Source: a virus | Length of the DNA stretch: 64,000 nt | Strand: one strand, 5' to 3' | IMG/VR virus record: IMGVR_UViG_2918486186_000008 | Span: 892 to 64,891 of that record | Part shown: positions 3,774 through 48,167 of the stretch, piece after piece | Layout of the letters: each line of letters opens with the position of its first letter | Numbering within the stretch: the first letter of the stretch is position 1 | Position numbers and translations under genes: made by a program | Notes under the pieces: generated by a model | What the model was told of the DNA's origin: nothing | Seen by the model: the letters and a program-made list of their open reading frames with translations, nothing else | Database searches by the model: none

Positions 3774-3809
3774 GTGCTGTGCTCCGGTCGTGAGTAAGTG
3801 CTGACTGAC

Positions 3810-3831
3810 TATAGCGCGAGAGCGTCGGGTT
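3810..3831 (-). promoter_or_regulatory. conserved bipartite promoter AACCCGA-N8-CGCTATA with downstream operator (3792-3807)
   Basis: Exact consensus match. Confidence 0.75.
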
Positions 3832-5061: not shown

Positions 5062-5472
5062 TCATGCAGCCTCCTCGAGCAGGTCCTCGCTGCACACGCC
5101 GTCGGCGATCTTGCGCTCGATCCGCGCCTTGAAATGGGCGGTGGATTTCGAGAGCACCCGGAGGATCTCGGCCTCCTCGCACTCGTCCGCGGAGATCTCG
5201 GCCGTCTCGCACAGGGCAAGCACGCTGATCCCGAGGCCGCCGACCTCCTGGCGCAGCGCGCCCGGCGGATTGGCGTAGACCTTGGCCGTGAGCCCGGCGA
5301 TCTTCTCCTGCGGGTAGCCGGCCGCCTGGGCGAGCTCCAACGCCTCCTCCAGGACCCGCTCGGCCCGGAAGCGCAGGTTCAGGGTGCGCAGGCCGAACAC
5401 CCGGGTGATCCAGTCCTTCACGACGACCTGGCGCTTGTCCCGCGTGTAGCGGGTCTGGTGGGGAGTGAGCAC
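5062..5472 (-). CDS. MazG-like nucleotide pyrophosphohydrolase domain protein (putative)
   Basis: RVLEEALELAQA...QEVGG, resembling the MazG-like EExxE...E pattern. Confidence 0.5.
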   Translation of the reverse strand: MLTPHQTRYTRDKRQVVVKDWITRVFGLRTLNLRFRAERVLEEALELAQAAGYPQEKIAGLTAKVYANPPGALRQEVGGLGISVLALCETAEISADECEEAEILRVLSKSTAHFKARIERKIADGVCSEDLLEEAA

Positions 5473-5545
5473 GTTCGTCTCCTGGTAAGTCAGTGGTGAC
5501 TGTTGCAGATGGGCAACACGGCGCGCGAGAGCGCCCTGCCCGGTT

Positions 5546-5818
5546 CTAGTGGCTGGGCCCGGTGTCGATGCCGTCGCCGACGATGGCCGGATCGTTCGCC
5601 ATGCGCTCGAGGACCATCATGACCTCGGGGTAGCGCAAGGCGATCGAGAGGGCGATCAGCTTCCGGCCCTGTGCCTCCTGCGCGGGCGTCAGTGGGCCGT
5701 CGACGCCGGTCGAGAACACCTTGAAGGTGCCGTCGGGCTTGAGGATCACGCCGGCATCACCGTGTTCGATCGGTGAGGTTACGGTGTTCTCCAGGGTCAG
5801 CAGGGTGTTGGGCTTCAC
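5546..5818 (-). CDS. hypothetical protein
   Basis: 90-aa ORF with an SD (GGAG) and an upstream promoter-like TATAGCG at 5885. Confidence 0.65.
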   Translation of the reverse strand: MKPNTLLTLENTVTSPIEHGDAGVILKPDGTFKVFSTGVDGPLTPAQEAQGRKLIALSIALRYPEVMMVLERMANDPAIVGDGIDTGPSH

Positions 5819-8360: not shown

Positions 8361-8401
8361 AAGTCAGTGCTGACTTATTATAGCGAGGGAGGGCCCGGGT
8401 T
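8361..8401 (-). promoter_or_regulatory. perfect operator AAGTCAGTGCTGACTT (8361-8376) directly downstream of the conserved promoter (8379-8401)
   Basis: Read directly from the sequence. Confidence 0.8.
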
Positions 8402-16743: not shown

Positions 16744-17191
16744 TTTCGCCTCCCTGTCTGTGTGCGCGTCGCGTCAGCTCGACGTCACGACTCATTTGTA
16801 GCGACGCGACGTCGGGTTGTCACAGTCAGCGCTGACTTACCGTGCTAAACCAGCACGCTGAGGAGTGCAATGCGCTTGGCCAGTCTCATGCCACATGTGC
16901 TCAACGTCCTGCCGCACTGACGTAGGGTTGCCCGCCTTGCGAGCGTCCTGCACCACATCAAGCTCGGCGAGATACTTGAGCGGGCGCGTTTGAAACGACG
17001 CTTCGGCAATGCGCCTTTGCCTTGACCGGCCAAGCAAATTTGACGCTCTGAAATGGCCGACATCGTGAGGCTTTGCAGCGCAGCATCAGTAAATATGGAC
17101 GGCCGGTTCATGACGGAGGCTTTGAAAAAGAAAACCTCCGCTGTGATATAAATAGCACTTTACCTCGTTTCCGACATCCAGAATAAATAGA

Positions 17192-26769: not shown

Positions 26770-26785
26770 AAGTCAGTGCTGACTT
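26770..26785. promoter_or_regulatory. perfect operator palindrome upstream of nrdJ
   Basis: AAGTCAGTGCTGACTT. Confidence 0.75.
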
Positions 26786-39481: not shown

Positions 39482-40509
39482 GCTGCGGCCCTCAAGTCAG
39501 TGCTGACTCCACTCAGCGCGCAGAACGGCTCGAGCCAGCCGTCCAGGTCCGAGAGGAGGGAGTTGAAGACAAGCGCCTCGCACTGCTCGCGCACCGCGTC
39601 CGGGTTGAACTCGGGCTTGGTGAGCTTCGGCCGCACGGGCGCGGGGATGTCGTTGTGCATCAGGTCCATGATGCGCAGGTTGCGGTAGAAGATCTCCCGC
39701 TTCTCCTTCTCGGAGCAGAAGTCGGCGAGCTTCTTGGGCACGTCGACCTTGTGGATCTCGACCGCCTCGAAGAACCCGCGCACGGTGCCGAACTTGCGCA
39801 CCAGGTCGAAGGCGCCGATCTCGCCGATGCCGCCCACGCCCGGGATCTCGTCCGAGACGTCGCCCATCAGGGCCTTCGCCTCGAGATAGGCCTGCGGGCT
39901 CGGGCAGCCGCGCCACTCGATGTCCTCGACCAGGACGGAGCCGTCGGCCTGCTTGGTCCGCTTCTGCTTCATGTAGCCGACCTTCTCCGAGAAGTTGGAG
40001 TGGGTCACACGCTTCTGCTGGACGGGCGCGTGCCAGGCGACGCCGGGTTGGACGAGCTGGAGCCAGTCCTTGTCGCCGGAGATCATCAGGATCTTGGCGC
40101 CGGCCGCGATGTCGGGCGTGTAGCGCTTCACCAGGATGCCGGCGAAGTCGTCGGCCTCGAGGTTGGCGGCCGAGAGCTGCGGCACGCCGCAGGCCTTCAT
40201 GATCCGGTTGACCAGGGGCCGCTGCGAACGCCAGGAGGCGCGCACATGGGCGACCTTCTCGTCGTTCTTGGTCACGGGCTTGGCGTCGCGCGAGCCCTTG
40301 TAGCCCTCGATTTCCTTCTTCCGCCAGCTATCGCCGTCCCAGAGCAGAAGCGGGCGCAGTTGGGGATAGGTCGCGACCATCATCCTGATGGCGCGAATTG
40401 TCCCTAGAACCCCCTGCGTCTCCTGCTCCCCAACCTTGAGGACCTTGGTCGAAGTGGCAGCAAAACCGATGTTATTCACGTCGATGAGCAGATGGCCCCG
40501 GTGCTTCAT
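39478..40509 (-). CDS. 5'-3' exonuclease / flap endonuclease (T4 RNase H / PolI N-terminal-like)
   Basis: LLIDVNN, WDG, YKGSR, LEADD, SGDKDWLQL and GDVSDEIPGVGGIG motifs. Confidence 0.92.
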   Translation of the reverse strand: MKHRGHLLIDVNNIGFAATSTKVLKVGEQETQGVLGTIRAIRMMVATYPQLRPLLLWDGDSWRKKEIEGYKGSRDAKPVTKNDEKVAHVRASWRSQRPLVNRIMKACGVPQLSAANLEADDFAGILVKRYTPDIAAGAKILMISGDKDWLQLVQPGVAWHAPVQQKRVTHSNFSEKVGYMKQKRTKQADGSVLVEDIEWRGCPSPQAYLEAKALMGDVSDEIPGVGGIGEIGAFDLVRKFGTVRGFFEAVEIHKVDVPKKLADFCSEKEKREIFYRNLRIMDLMHNDIPAPVRPKLTKPEFNPDAVREQCEALVFNSLLSDLDGWLEPFCALSGVSTDLRAAA

Positions 40510-42314: not shown

Positions 42315-42905
42315 TCACTCGGACTCGGCCATCGTGCGGGCGGCCCGGGCGCCGACGCGCTCAGCGGCCGACTTGGCGTTGTCGGCCAGCTCGCGCTTGG
42401 CCGCCATCGACAGCTCGCCCTTCATCTCCTCGCGGGAGGTGGCGCCGGCCTGCACGAGCATGTCGCGCCGGTGCCGGAAGGCCTCGAGGGTCGTGTTGGC
42501 GACCTTCTCGATCTGCTTGGCCTCGTTCAGCGCCCGCTTGAAGGCGACCACCTGCGGGTGCCGGGCGATCTTCCGCTCGACGATGCCCTCGGTGATCTTC
42601 TCGCCGAGGACGGCCATCGCCTCGCGGATCTCGCGATCCACCTTGGCTTCCTGGTTCTCGATGAGGATCTTGATGTTGTCGACCTGGCGCGAGGCCTTGG
42701 CCGCCAGCACGCCGAAGTGGGCGAACAGGGACGCCTGATCGGCCATCGCGCTCGACAGGTCGTTGAGCGAGTAGGCGAGCTTCCCCTTGAGGTCCTCCTC
42801 GGCCAGGAAGTCCTTCACCTGGACCTTGCGGACCTGGATCTGCTTCGGGGCAGGGGGCGTCGGCGGCGTTGCCGATGTCTCGTCGGTCTGGGCTTCGTCG
42901 CTCAT
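42315..42905 (-). CDS. UvsY-like recombination mediator (putative)
   Basis: Helical protein, KITEGIVERKI...LEAFRHRRDML pattern; sits next to the gp32-like SSB. Confidence 0.6.
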   Translation of the reverse strand: MSDEAQTDETSATPPTPPAPKQIQVRKVQVKDFLAEEDLKGKLAYSLNDLSSAMADQASLFAHFGVLAAKASRQVDNIKILIENQEAKVDREIREAMAVLGEKITEGIVERKIARHPQVVAFKRALNEAKQIEKVANTTLEAFRHRRDMLVQAGATSREEMKGELSMAAKRELADNAKSAAERVGARAARTMAESE

Positions 42906-42908
42906 GGC

Positions 42909-43157
42909 TCAGACCCGCGGCGGGAACGACCAGGTGCCCGGCTGATCCGGGCCACCCTCGAGCACGCATTCCGGCAGCGGCTCGGGCTTCCGGCCGGGCG
43001 CGAACACCGTCAGCGAGCAGATGTCGCCGCCGTCGCCGGCCTCGAACACGCCGGTGACGATCGCCGCGTAGGGCTGATCCGAGATCGAGACGCGCTCGGC
43101 GTCCCTGGGGTGGTAGTGGACGATGCGTCCGACGCTGGGACGCTGGTGTGCGGGCAT
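42909..43157 (-). CDS. hypothetical phage protein
   Basis: PSVGRIVHY...AAIVT...LTVF; behind the operator/promoter at 43175-43218. Confidence 0.7.
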   Translation of the reverse strand: MPAHQRPSVGRIVHYHPRDAERVSISDQPYAAIVTGVFEAGDGGDICSLTVFAPGRKPEPLPECVLEGGPDQPGTWSFPPRV

Positions 43158-43321
43158 GGCTGCCTCCGCTGAGTGAGTAAGTGCTGACTGATCTTTTATA
43201 GCGAGCGCGCGTCGGGTTTTGCGTGGGTCGCGCTGGCTTCTGGTGTGGGTAGCTATGGCCATCCACAGCAAGATAAGTCAGCGCTGAATTGGTTTGAAAA
43301 ATCGACGTTTGTGCTATCTTA

Positions 43322-43680
43322 GGGGGTGAGGGACGCAGGTGGCCGCCCGCGTCCCTCGGTGTTGGTAGCTGGCAGCGCTACTCGTTACATGAGCCCGAGC
43401 GTGATGGTCACAGACCACTCACCGCTCGGGTTTCGTGTAACCGTGACCCGCAGAAGCGGGATCATCAGCACATTGCATCACCTCCTCCCCTGCCTTCTCA
43501 AGACGGCGGCGGCACTCGCCGTTAACCCTCGGTCCAAGGGGGTCGCGTAGGGAGGAGACCCAACGAGGCCAATGTAGCAGGCAACTCCGAGTCTACAAAA
43601 CCGGCCGAGCGTCTCGTCCCCAACATCCACCGTTTTGCGGGGGTCGGCCGTCTCTTGTCCCCGGTATCCCCAAGAGCGCC
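43322..43680 (+). ncRNA. candidate large structured non-coding RNA (family not recognised)
   Basis: At least 8 helices including long-range pairings; G-U pairs favour the plus strand; TTGAAA...TATCTT just upstream. Confidence 0.6.
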
Positions 43681-43735
43681 TATTGACTGACGCATTCTCG
43701 GGGCGCGTCGGCCGGTGTGGGCTTGACAGGCGCGA

Positions 43736-46700
43736 TCAGTCGCTCATGAGGGCGGCGGCCACCTCGAACACCTCGTTGAGCTTCGCCTGCTTGGAGGCGT
43801 CGTGGAAGATCTCGCCCGGGGCGAAGCCGATCACGAGATTGGCGTCGAGGCCCTTGTGGTAGACGACCTCGCCGGCGACCTCGGACGCCTTGCCCTTGAA
43901 GTCGGGGATGAACTGCCGGACCGTGGTCGAGCCGAGCAGCACGATCACCGGCGGCTTGAGGATCTCGATCTCGCGGGCGAGGTAGGGCCCGTAGGTGGCG
44001 ATCTCGCTGGCCGAGACCTGCTTGCCGGCCTTGGGCCGCTTGATGAGGGCGGTCCAGTAGGCGTCGGCCCGCGACAGGTCGTTGGCGTCGAGCGCCTCCT
44101 GGACCCACTCGCTGACGCAGTAGGAGCCGCGGTTGTCGTAGCTCATGCGGCCGGAGGTGTCCTCGCCCTTCGAGGGCGCGTCGAGGATCACCATGAAGCG
44201 CATGTTCTTGCCCGTGGTCATCTTCACCGGCATGCCGTCCTCGGCGCAGCCGTCCGAGTAGTCGGCGAACACCTCCAGGATCTTGATCCGGCTGTCCCGG
44301 TCGCGGTGCATCTCGCGGCTGATCGGGACGTGGGCCGTGATGAGCCCCGGGATCAGCTCGCGCTGGTCCTTGATCCGGTCCGGGTGGCGTCGAGGTAGCT
44401 GGCCTGGCTCGATGTCGGCGAAGGCGCCGACCAGGTCGAGGAGCCCGACGTGCTTGACGTTGCAGCGCCGCCGCTCGACGCGGGCGGTCAGGTCCTCCTT
44501 CGACTTGAACGGGCCGGCCCCGTCGCCCCGCGCCTTCAGGATGGCCTCGGTGGTCAGCGCCGAAATGCCCTTGATCCGGTTGAACGGCATGCACAGCCGC
44601 GTGTCGGTCACGATCTCGAACTGGTTGGTCGAGTGGTTGATGTCGGGCAGATCCACCTCGATCCCCATCCGCTCGGCGTCCTTCATCAGGCCCGGCAGCT
44701 TGTCCTGGGGCATCAGGGTGAGCGCCGCCGCGAAGAACTCCACCGGGTAGTGGGTCTTGAGATACATCGCCTGGTAGGAGATCAGCGTGTATTCGACCGA
44801 GTGGCTCTTGTTGAAGCCGTAGCCGGCGAAGCCCTCGATCTTGTCGAACAGCAGACCGGCCCACTCGGGCGTGCAGTCCACGGTCGCGACACAGCCCTCG
44901 ACGAACTTGCCGCGCTCCTTCTTCATCTCCTCGGGGAGCTTCTTACCCATGATCTTGCGGAGCTTGTCGGCCTGCGCGCCTGAGTAGCCGGCGATCACCT
45001 GAGAGGCCTTCATGACCTGCTCCTGGTAGACGAACACGCCGTAGGTCGGGCTGAGCACCGGCTCGAGGAGCGGGTGGTCATAGTCCACGCTCTCGATGCC
45101 CTGCTTGCGCTTCCAGTAGCTGTCCATCATGCCCGACTCCATCGGGCCCGGGCGGTAGAGCGCGGTCGCGGCCGTGATGTCGTCGAAGGTGATGGTGCCG
45201 TCCTTGCCCAGCTCCTTGAGCAGGCGCCGCATGCCGCCGCCCTCGAACTGGAAGATGCCCGTGGAGATCGCGCGGGCGAAGTTGTCGAGCACCTTCGGCT
45301 CGTCGAGCGGGATCCGCAGTAGGTCGACCTTCTTGCCGCGCCGCTTGCGGATGTAGTCGAGGGTGAGCGCGATCAGGTCCAGGGTGTTGAGGCCCAGGAT
45401 GTCCATCTTCACCAGGCCCTGGTCCTCGACGATGCGCTTGTCCCAGCACACCACCGGCAGATCCGGGACCGGCTCCTCGCCCTCCTTCGGCTTCGAGGGC
45501 GCCTTGCGCCGCTCGATGACGGCCCGCTCGACCAGATCGACGCCGCCGACGACGACGCCGGCCGCGTGCTGCGAGAGGTTGCGCAGGCAGCCTTCGAGCT
45601 TCTTGGCCGTGTCCCAGATCTCGGGGTTGCCGGCCGCGAACGCGCCGATCTCCGTCACCTCTGCGGCGGCCTCGGCGAGCTTGACCGGCTGGCCGTGCTT
45701 CTTCGGCACGAACTTGGAGCAGCGATAGAGCTCCTCGTTGAGGCCGAACACGCGGCTCACGTCCCGGATCGCCGAGCTGGCGCCCAGGCGCCCGTAGTTC
45801 GAGACGCCGGCCACGCGGGCGGTGCCATACTTGCGGATGAGATACTGGAACACCTCGTGCCGGCGCTCGGACATGAAGTCGAGGTCGGCGTCGGGAAGGT
45901 CGATACGCTCGGGGTTGATGAAGCGCTCGAACAGGAGCTCGAAGCGGAGCGGATCGCAGTCGGTGATCCCCATCAGGTAGGCGACGAGCGAGCCGCCCAC
46001 GGAGCCGCGGCCGGGGCCGACCAGGATCCCCTGGCTCTTGGCCCACACGACCACGTCCTGCACCAGGAGGAAGTAGCCCGAGAAGCTGAGGTTCTTGAGC
46101 ACGGTCAGCTCGTAGCGCAGCCGCGGCTGGTAGACGTCCTTGAGCTCCTGGTTCGACGGGCGGTGCCCGAACACCGGGGCGGTGAAGCGCTCGTGCCAGC
46201 CCTTGGTGCAGGCCTCGACGACCGCCTTGAACTCGTCGGGCGCCATGATCGGCAGCGAGGGCGCGGACTTGGCCCAGGCGAAGGTGACCATGTCGACGAG
46301 GCGCGCGGTGTTCTTCATGCCCTCGGAGAAGCGCCCCTTGGTCGGCACGCCCCGGAACTCCTCGAGCCGCTTGGCGGCCGCCTTCACGTCGCGCACCAAC
46401 TCCTGCAGGGTCTTCGGATGCAGGTCGCGCACCGGGTTGAACCACGCCCAGGGCTCGGTGAGCTTCACGTTGCGGGTGACGGCGTTCATGATGTCGGCCG
46501 CGTCGGCGCTGCCCTCCTCGTAGAGGGCGGGCGCGGCGACCAGCGTCGGCAGGCCGAGCTCCTCGGCGAGCTGGAGCGCCTTGACGTTCTGGGTGTCCCA
46601 GTAGGGCGTGTCGATCGGCACCAGCGTGCAGAACGTATTAGACGCGCTCAGAGCGTCGGAAATCTTCGTGAGTATCTGTGACGCTGACTTGTGCGCGACG

Positions 46701-47143
46701 ACGCTGTGCGCGTCGCTCGTCGCGATTGCGACGTCTGCCGCAGTCACGTTCGCAAGCTCTGCATAGAGATCGTCGAAGGAGAGCTTGGCGTTGTTGTAGA
46801 AGCGCTCCTCGGAGTTGGCGAGCGACAGCAGGCGGTAGAGCGCCATCAGCCCGGCCTGGGAGAGAACATACCAGGTCACGAAGAACTCCGGCGGCGCCTT
46901 CTTGTCCTCCTTGGTCTTGCGCCAGGTGACGTCGTCCACGAGCCGGAGCCGGCAGCCGATGACGGGCTTGATCCCGGCCTTCTGCGCCTTCTGGGTCAGC
47001 TCGATCAGACTGGTCGCCGACATGGTGTCCGTCACGCCGACGGCCTTGGCGCCGGCTCCAACGGCCCGGTCCACGAGGCTCTCGATCGACAAGATGCTCT
47101 CGCCGATCGAAAAATTGGTGCGAGCCGCTAGGACCGCGTGCAT
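43736..47143 (-). CDS. dnaE: DNA polymerase III alpha subunit with a C-terminal uracil-DNA-glycosylase-like domain
   Basis: PHP ([12 protein letters not shown]), [42 protein letters not shown] and YGFNKSH; true start MHAVLAART at 47143. Confidence 0.95.
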
Positions 47144-47622
47144 GGAGATCTCCGGTTGTTGGCTTGAACTTTTCGGGTGGCCCAGACGCAGTTGCCTGGC
47201 TCGTAGGGGCCGTCGTTGTTCTTCCGCTCGATCGTCAGATTGCGCGGGCGCTCGCCCATGTCGGCGAGGAAATTCTCGAAGGTCTTCCAGTGCTCGCACA
47301 CGGTGATCCCGCGGGCGCCGTAATCCTTGTAGGACTCGTTGTTCGGGTTCGTCGTCCGCTGGATCATGTTGGACCAGCAGACGTAGGTGGGTGAGCGCTT
47401 GCTGTGCCCGTGCCGGATGGAGCGGGCGCTCGTCGCTTCGTTCTTGGCGCAGCCGCAGGACGACGTGTGACCGGACTGGAGATCCCGTCCGGCCGCCCTT
47501 GCTGAGCCGCCGCAGGTGCAAAGGCACCTCCAAGCGGCGTTGCCACCCATGACGCCGTCGCGCGCCTCTACCGTGAGGCGCCCGAAGGTCTGGCCCGTGA
47601 GATCGACCAGCCGGCCCATCAT
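47128..47622 (-). CDS. HNH-type homing endonuclease
   Basis: [12 protein letters not shown]...WRCLCTCG...[13 protein letters not shown] and [20 protein letters not shown]; overlaps the dnaE start. Confidence 0.88.
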
Positions 47623-48143: not shown

Positions 48144-48167
48144 CGAAGTCAGCACTGACTTACTTCC

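Follow-up and report, generated by a model that had tools for sequence, protein, structure and literature searches.

What is encoded by the structured element that lies beside dnaE in a phage-plasmid of Methylobacterium? The element is located in the 64,000-nt window analysed here (IMG/VR virus record IMGVR_UViG_2918486186_000008, positions 892 to 64,891; all coordinates below are those of the window unless a contig is named), where it sits inside a gap of 578 nt between dnaE and a gene for a hypothetical protein of 82 amino acids. A sequence-only reading of positions 43322-43680 had described a structured RNA of ~355 nt on the plus strand, antisense to the replication genes and containing no credible open reading frame (ORF), and had suggested a large non-coding RNA (ncRNA) or ribozyme. 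Comparison with homologues points instead to a compact cassette of ~245 bp with features on both strands. These are a covarying RNA structure, a conserved ORF on the minus strand (the sense of dnaE), and promoter-like motifs that face inwards from both ends. We put at about even the chances that the cassette is a type I toxin-antitoxin (TA)-like module that the phage-plasmid has captured, perhaps to secure its own maintenance; the toxicity of the peptide, its translation and the transcribed strands are what we infer in this interpretation.

A conserved family of cassettes

The conserved structured cassette, which has features on both strands, spans 43323-43565 (match to positions 1-256 of covariance model R1; cmsearch, 198.8 bits, E = 2e-55). 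Conservation stops at 43565, and the 3′ third of the region originally described, 43566-43680, was not conserved in the homologues. The element is structured and matches no known family, as had been supposed, and it is conserved and covarying, but its conserved unit is shorter than ~355 nt, at ~245 bp. The pseudoknot and the long-range helices proposed beyond 43565 (43358-65/43620-27, 43468-75/43570-78 and 43602-08/43644-50) reach into this flank, and were rejected because it is not conserved.

A blastn search found no match in a phage collection and only one in a plasmid collection. The latter was a near-identical circular plasmid of 116.8 kb, 'unnamed2' of Methylobacterium oryzae H33R-06, which shows 99.3% identity to the window across the region. 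With the invariant hairpin core GTGATGGTCNNNGACCACTCAC as query on genome contigs, the family was found on 13 chromosomal contigs of Methylobacterium and Methylorubrum, with two in some genomes. These chromosomal homologues align from the promoter-like motif across ~245 nt and occupy unrelated intergenic contexts. The R1 model detected one to three copies in each of five genomes. In samples centred on a Methylobacterium brachiatum chromosome, 20 of the 41 genomes drawn at genus level had a match, again at one to three copies, whereas among 151 drawn at the level of the GTDB family only 2 did, and one of these was the centre genome. Judged by these sequence matches, the family appears to be confined to Methylobacterium/Methylorubrum chromosomes and one lineage of dnaE-bearing phage-plasmids.

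For comparison of the dnaE locus, 22 relatives were taken from viral contigs. The cassette is carried by the window, the M. oryzae plasmid and contigs L004, L007 and L023, always downstream of dnaE and in one orientation. It is absent from three further relatives at this locus: in L006 and L021 only 74-110 nt separate dnaE from the next gene, and in L005 the gap of ~530 nt is occupied by an unrelated open frame. In more distant relatives the next conserved gene directly follows dnaE. Since only the closest dnaE-locus relatives carry the element, it is best explained as an insertion acquired within one phage-plasmid lineage. An additional open frame of ~122 codons, counted from stop to stop, was observed in L007 (positions 5356-5730 of that contig) between dnaE and the cassette, in a gap of ~950 nt; this suggests that the site after dnaE is a variable insertion hotspot.

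RNA structure and covariation

The region 43322-43680 folds better than dinucleotide shuffles on either strand (z = −4.7 for plus and −3.1 for minus), and the minus-strand fold of 43566-43322 gave z = −4.6. RNAalifold analysis of 16 sequences produced 61 pairs, and compensatory changes were seen at 29 of these. In the 48 distinct rows of a model-fitted alignment, 91.8% of cells pair. Two-sided changes were found in 47 of 58 pairs, against 28.5 ± 2.7 in shuffled alignments, and none of 500 shuffles reached the observed value. The covariation score was 0.306, compared with 0.123 for shuffles and 0.04-0.06 when the partners were slid; fitting the alignment to the model biases it towards the structure, although the excess over the controls is large.

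Five of the helices that had been drawn from the window alone recur in the homologues with compensatory changes. P1, a GC-rich hairpin at 43328-43357 (arms 43328-36/43349-57), shows such changes in all 13 pairs; it would form the 3′-terminal hairpin of a minus-strand mRNA and the 5′ hairpin of a plus-strand antisense RNA. P3, a long hairpin at 43391-43433 with an outer extension 43384-90/43435-41 (43384-401/43423-41 as first drawn), lies inside the ORF described below, and its 19 bp are paired in 95.8% of cells with 11 compensatory pairs. The small hairpin P4 (43443-43465; first drawn at 43447-60), within the ORF towards its 5′ end, is paired in 79% of cells and is compensatory at 5 of 5 pairs. 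Upstream of the ORF, in what would be the 5′ untranslated region (UTR) of the mRNA, hairpins P5a and P5b (43500-43546; P5a arms 43502-08/43517-23) belong to a three-way junction, with 12 of 12 pairs compensatory and 92% of cells paired. The junction is closed by the helix 43482-89/43550-57, which also covaries.

No Rfam family was matched by the window at gathering thresholds, in keeping with the earlier assignment to an unknown family, and the 13 chromosomal loci had no match except two tRNAs elsewhere. A scan for tRNA and tmRNA found none. When E values up to 10 were allowed, only two sub-threshold matches appeared, both on the minus strand and taken as chance: CC2171 (RF01867; 20.2 bits against a gathering threshold of 75, E = 0.06), to which the likeness is limited to AGGAGGUGAU and a GC hairpin, and anti-hemB (18 bits). 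No chromosomal copy reached any Rfam threshold.

A small ORF on the minus strand

An ORF of 28 codons extends on the minus strand from GTG at 43471-43469 to TAA at 43387-43385, and would be translated as (M)LMIPLLRVTVTRNPSGEWSVTITLGLM. A Shine-Dalgarno (SD) sequence, GGAGGAGGTGA, is located 6 nt upstream of the GTG (43478-43488, minus strand), and the SD-like GGAAGG(G/A)GGTGA occurs at the same spacing in homologues. The frame is intact in 35 of the 36 distinct peptide sequences recovered, and its length across the family is 27-30 codons. The start codon alternates between GTG, ATG and TTG within a single alignment column, while the stop is TAA, TAG or TGA and varies in position within a few codons. 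Indels remain in frame, and include loss of the Glu before Trp and addition of one residue in the first strand. The peptide consensus is x-V-I-G-F-P-I-x-T-I-T-V-x-K/R-N-x-S-G-W-S-x-T-I-T-L-G-L-I. In a divergent clade (AVTFTATKTRDGWQFAIHLALI) most residues are changed, and the alternation of hydrophobic and small polar (Thr-Ser-Gly) residues is strictly kept.

The GC contents at the three codon positions are 0.45, 0.49 and 0.84, a periodicity that a real gene in a high-GC genome should show and a non-coding hairpin should not. When the six frames were compared, pN/pS was lowest (0.74) and the synonymous fraction highest (0.23) in the ORF frame, which also scored best by BLOSUM at codons that differ. 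The margins are modest, and they are biased by an alignment built in the ORF frame and by the constraint of RNA structure on synonymous sites. Other frames were considered. Those on the plus strand, such as a 74-residue GTG frame at 43326-43550, had neither a conserved start nor an SD sequence. Taken together, the comparative data indicate that the minus-strand ORF is a conserved coding sequence, from which a 28-residue peptide would be translated. The earlier view that this region holds no credible ORF, and is the site of a large RNA or ribozyme free of genes, is not supported by this result, even though the covariation expected of such an RNA is present.

The peptides of the family have 27-30 residues, a mean grand average of hydropathy of 0.92 and a net charge of +1 to +2. 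AlphaFold2, run with a 27-sequence alignment and a 30-residue query, predicted an amphipathic beta-hairpin with strands at residues 7-15 and 21-29 (mean predicted local distance difference test score of 90.8). The arms of P3 encode the turn and the second strand. Searches of Pfam, NCBIfam (E up to 10) and ESM Atlas features found nothing for the peptide, and no homology to known toxin families (Hok, Ldr, Ibs, TisB, Fst, TxpA, AapA and others) was detected in Pfam, NCBIfam and profile searches. When 1.8 billion representative proteins were searched with a profile, only 15 small unnamed proteins ending in the motif were returned, and all matches bearing names were 'hypothetical protein' entries of Methylobacterium or Methylorubrum.

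Some copies differ from this pattern. In a copy from Methylorubrum rhodinum (L046 positions 1552-1632, the L033 locus), a 1-nt insertion shifts the frame of the small ORF, and the RNA structure still scores 268 bits; this copy is possibly a pseudogene or an RNA-only copy. In L004 (3582-3700) and L023 (1388-1500), P1 to P4 and the ORF, with an ATG start, are kept and the P5 junction is replaced by a different 5′-UTR domain. The silencing domain would thus turn over faster than the ORF.

Convergent promoter-like motifs and predicted sequestration of the SD sequence

Sigma-70-like motifs point inwards at both ends of the cassette. On the plus strand, at 43293-43320, a −35 element TTTGAA (43293-98) is followed by a TG-extended −10 element TATCTT (43315-20), with a predicted start at ~43326-43328 for an antisense RNA. 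In the phage-plasmid copies, TATCTTA and GTTT..AA are invariant at this position. The pattern TTGNNN-N15-18-NANNNT pointing into the cassette on the plus strand is shared by 32 of the 40 unique members, where 2.3 would be expected, which supports the earlier proposal of a promoter-like sequence directed into the element. On the minus strand, at 43571-43598, a −35 element TTGTAG (43598-43593) and a −10 element TACATT (43576-43571) are separated by 16 nt, with a predicted start for the peptide mRNA at ~43562-43564. Promoter-like motifs were found at the corresponding position in 20-26 of the 40 unique homologues, where 2-3 would be expected. The conserved unit therefore exactly spans two convergent predicted starts.

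Wobble pairs were used to ask in which transcript each helix is selected. In P1, 47 pairs were A-C on the plus strand, and so G-U on the minus strand, against 9 that were G-U on the plus strand. This bias suggests that P1 is selected in the minus transcript, and the earlier statement that G-U pairs occur only on the plus strand was incorrect. An independent RNAalifold analysis of the minus-strand alignment recovered P1, the junction and the closing helix. The sequence CCUUCC/CUCCUCCC in the 5′ UTR of the predicted mRNA (anti-SD CUCCUCCC at 43550-43557, minus strand) pairs with the SD region at 43482-43489 through U-G pairs, which are A-C on the plus strand and thus valid only on the minus strand. 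The same SD/anti-SD helix is present in the minimum-free-energy fold of the window's own mRNA. These folding models indicate that the SD sequence would be sequestered within the mRNA.

Just upstream of the plus −35 element lies a palindrome, AGTCAG-N2-CTGACT (43276-43289, both strands, with one mismatch). This 14-bp sequence is enriched in the window, with 51 strand-matches at up to two mismatches, or ~27 sites, against 1.5 strand-matches expected. Sites include 8362-8375, 16824-16837, 26771-26784, 39495-39508, 43176-43189 and 48147-48160, and many appeared by eye to be near ORF boundaries. The palindrome is probably recognised by a phage-encoded regulator or sigma factor, as an operator or promoter element. 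An operator had been proposed upstream of the plus promoter, and a copy of the palindrome does stand there, but the homologues lack it at the matching position; repressor control through it is therefore possible in the window copy only. Phage control of the antisense RNA by this route is conceivable.

Evidence of transcription

Contigs with 100% identity to the cassette region were found in three metatranscriptome runs from two studies (43311-43515, 43338-43520 and 43437-43595). A contig from a fourth run, 43585-43787, covers the intergenic spacer and the last 52 nt of dnaE, and the rest of the flanking genes within 42600-44400 was not covered by these contigs. One contig (X39) begins 16 nt upstream of where the plus transcript is predicted to start, and the end of another lies 30 nt upstream of the predicted minus start. 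With contig ends beyond both predicted starts, neither promoter alone explains the set, which is consistent with transcription of both strands or with read-through from dnaE on the minus strand.

A chromosomal member of the family has also been sampled by RNA-seq. Boutet et al. (bioRxiv 10.1101/2022.01.24.477521, Table S1) list candidate 1113 of Methylorubrum extorquens AM1. The 51-nt probe for it matches exactly, as reverse complement, the plus-sense segment of the family from the 3′ arm of P3 to P4, which identifies the candidate as a family member. In this strain the locus lies around 2,218,259-2,218,369. The family region is accordingly transcribed in M. extorquens AM1, on a strand that depends on the convention of the preprint table. 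The preprint lists 1113 as a candidate only, and describes no structure, ORF, family or function for it; Northern bands were obtained only for candidates 1153 and 2624 (bioRxiv 10.1101/2022.01.24.477521). Met2624, a validated small RNA (sRNA) of the preprint, was considered as a further member and rejected. None of five core motifs (e.g. GTGATGGTC and CCTTCCCGTC) occurs in the supplement listing Met2624 intergenic regions, and the Met2624 probe is by eye unlike the family consensus. The family is absent from Rfam, Pfam and NCBIfam, its proteins are unnamed, and one member coincides with an unverified preprint candidate.

A possible type I TA-like module and its alternatives

These observations can be assembled into a mechanism. 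The minus promoter, TTGTAG-N16-TACATT, would start an mRNA near 43563, whose ~90-nt 5′ UTR would fold as the three-way junction, with the anti-SD CUCCUCCC hiding the SD sequence. This mRNA would encode the 28-residue hydrophobic peptide, predicted to be an amphipathic beta-hairpin, and would end in P1. The stronger and better conserved plus promoter, TTTGAA-N16-TGcTATCTT, would fire through P1 and into the cassette. Its antisense transcript would begin with the complement of the mRNA 3′ hairpin, allowing loop-loop contact, and, if it read on, would cover the ORF together with the start codon and, as a perfect anti-SD, the SD sequence. The mRNA for a toxic peptide may in this way be silenced both by its own fold and by antisense RNA. 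A dnaE-bearing phage-plasmid lineage would have taken up a chromosomal copy downstream of dnaE, where its role would most plausibly be plasmid maintenance, by post-segregational killing, or exclusion. The cassette has two traits by which type I TA loci are recognised, a small hydrophobic ORF (<~60 residues) and an mRNA predicted to be restrained by sequestration of its SD sequence. Its multi-copy spread on chromosomes and its capture by a plasmid-like phage are also consistent with this class.

Several observations weigh against a type I TA-like module. Type I toxins are usually alpha-helical and transmembrane, a trait that is typical and not strictly defining, and the predicted beta-hairpin departs from it; the hydrophobic stretches of the peptide are each only ~10 residues, short of a transmembrane helix. 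We therefore use the term type I TA-like, and do not claim that membership of the class is demonstrated. The coding signal includes a pN/pS that is low only in relative terms, from an in-frame codon alignment of sequences chosen by a peptide regular expression; the M. rhodinum copy is frameshifted, and one copy (L074) has no canonical start in the conserved column. As to the strands, the minus promoter is less canonical than the plus promoter, P3, P4 and the P5 closing helix have more G-U pairs on the plus strand (the strand on which the structure was derived), and a strict scan of 43100-43800 for promoters and terminators called neither. The RNA runs were read as contigs, which carry no strand and may include DNA carry-over. 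The probe for candidate 1113, which has the peptide sense and detects plus RNA, gave no Northern band in the preprint.

One alternative is a cassette of the same architecture that is not toxic: a small-protein gene with a cis-antisense regulator, in which a regulatory or membrane-associated beta-hairpin protein is the product of an ordinary accessory gene that the phage-plasmid carries by chance. The same coding and structural evidence applies to such a gene. The peptide has no segment of transmembrane-helix length and matches no known toxin family, and one frameshifted copy has been tolerated. We consider this possible but doubtful. Features that mark type I TA systems and are uncommon in ordinary small-protein genes count against it: copies at multiple unrelated loci, capture by a plasmid-like element, sequestration of the SD sequence and a stronger promoter on the opposing strand.

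Could the plus strand alone account for the data? A structured ncRNA of ~245 nt might act in trans on ribosome-binding sites through the anti-SD-like sequence UCACCUCCU, the ORF being a by-product of hairpins and the anti-SD. Of the two promoters the plus one is better conserved; the G-U pairs of P3, P4 and the P5 closing helix are commoner on the plus strand; structural covariation is strong; and a conserved plus-strand stretch is complementary to an SD sequence and start codon. Such an RNA leaves unexplained the GC periodicity, the start-codon switching, the in-frame indels and the amphipathic alternation, as well as the minus-strand preference of P1 and the SD helix, the minus promoter motif and the contig that starts upstream of the plus start. 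No plus-strand ORF has a conserved start. We regard this explanation as unlikely. The last alternative, that the cassette is a DNA-level element such as a replication origin, an attachment or packaging site, or a repeat resembling a miniature inverted-repeat transposable element, and not a gene, seems very improbable. The cassette does adjoin replication genes in the phage-plasmid, and it is multi-copy in varied contexts. Its chromosomal copies, by contrast, lie away from replication genes, terminal inverted repeats and iterons were not seen in the alignments, and wobble-pair covariation and codon periodicity point to selection at the RNA and protein levels.

If the type I TA-like interpretation is pursued to its furthest extent, a more specific proposal can be made, which we advance only tentatively and think rather improbable in full. 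The family would be the first type I TA family described in Alphaproteobacteria, with a toxin that is a 28-residue amphipathic beta-hairpin of strictly alternating pattern, like the stems of beta-barrel pore formers, and that oligomerises into a membrane pore. A lineage of Methylobacterium phage-plasmids would have captured it as an addiction or exclusion module, with the antisense promoter placed beside a phage-wide operator palindrome. The analogy with the membrane-spanning hairpins of beta-barrel pore formers is speculation, based on the alternation in the peptide.

Comparison with known systems

Among known systems, Ibs-Sib (the SIB/QUAD repeats of Escherichia coli) has in common with the cassette a short, multi-copy chromosomal unit with a tiny hydrophobic ORF and an opposite sRNA gene (putative in the cassette) with its own promoter, and both were missed by gene callers. 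The two differ in that Ibs has ~19 residues and is a helical transmembrane peptide, whereas the cassette peptide has 27-30 residues and is predicted to be a beta-hairpin. The cassette also differs in its size (~245 bp), its elaborate 5′-UTR junction and its alphaproteobacterial host, and there is no sequence similarity. In hok/sok of plasmid R1 and AapA1/IsoA1 of Helicobacter, as is proposed here, the SD sequence is hidden by an upstream anti-SD or long-range pairing and the antisense RNA comes from a stronger promoter; location on a plasmid-like element, which post-segregational killing would stabilise, is a further point in common. Unlike these systems, the cassette has no leader ORF (mok), a different peptide class and convergent promoters ~245 bp apart. 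The proposed arrangement of convergent toxin mRNA and antitoxin RNA overlapping at a 3′ hairpin, on phage-derived elements, is shared with txpA/RatA and bsrG/SR4 of Bacillus subtilis prophages, which differ in their Gram-positive hosts and helical membrane toxins.

Type I TA loci are almost invisible to annotation. If our interpretation is correct, the family would widen the taxonomic and structural range of type I TA modules, and would provide a concrete candidate for the stable upkeep of ~115-kb phage-plasmids. The cassette also accounts for an M. extorquens RNA-seq 'sRNA candidate' unconfirmed by Northern blot. On the methodological side, a strongly covarying 'ncRNA' can conceal a real small ORF on the opposite strand.

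Genomic setting and other observations

The IMG/VR record of the window is classed as a provirus. The exact sequence of 43230-43700 was found in public metagenome runs from marine, soil, air, freshwater and wastewater samples. Methylobacterium is widespread and a common reagent contaminant, so that inferences about habitat from these matches are unsafe.

The genes that flank the cassette are on the minus strand. Downstream of it, in the minus-strand sense, is the gene for the 82-residue hypothetical protein (42909-43157), and genes further out on this strand encode a gp32-like single-stranded DNA-binding protein, an HNH endonuclease, a 5′-3′ exonuclease, a sigma factor and a MoxR ATPase. Just upstream of the 82-residue gene, at 43173-43219, a block with TATAAA, the palindrome and an SD sequence was observed, and it recurs elsewhere in the element with 83% identity, at ~3790-3831 (L003). 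The same block is found directly after dnaE in L005 and L006, and is a reused promoter/5′-UTR module. On the dnaE side of the cassette and outside its conserved unit, the stem 43602-08/43644-50 is followed by TTTT on the minus strand (43597-43650, read from the sequence); it is possibly the terminator of the dnaE operon.

The dnaE gene (43736-47140, minus strand) was assigned from Pfam and from the RefSeq annotation of the M. oryzae plasmid, which is 99% identical. Its product has the PHP, Pol III alpha, fingers and HHH domains. At the C terminus, at residues ~1110-1213 of the long frame 43736-47533 (minus strand), it also matches the uracil-DNA glycosylase superfamily (PF03167, E = 4.6e-8). 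A fusion of this kind on a Pol III alpha subunit is unusual.

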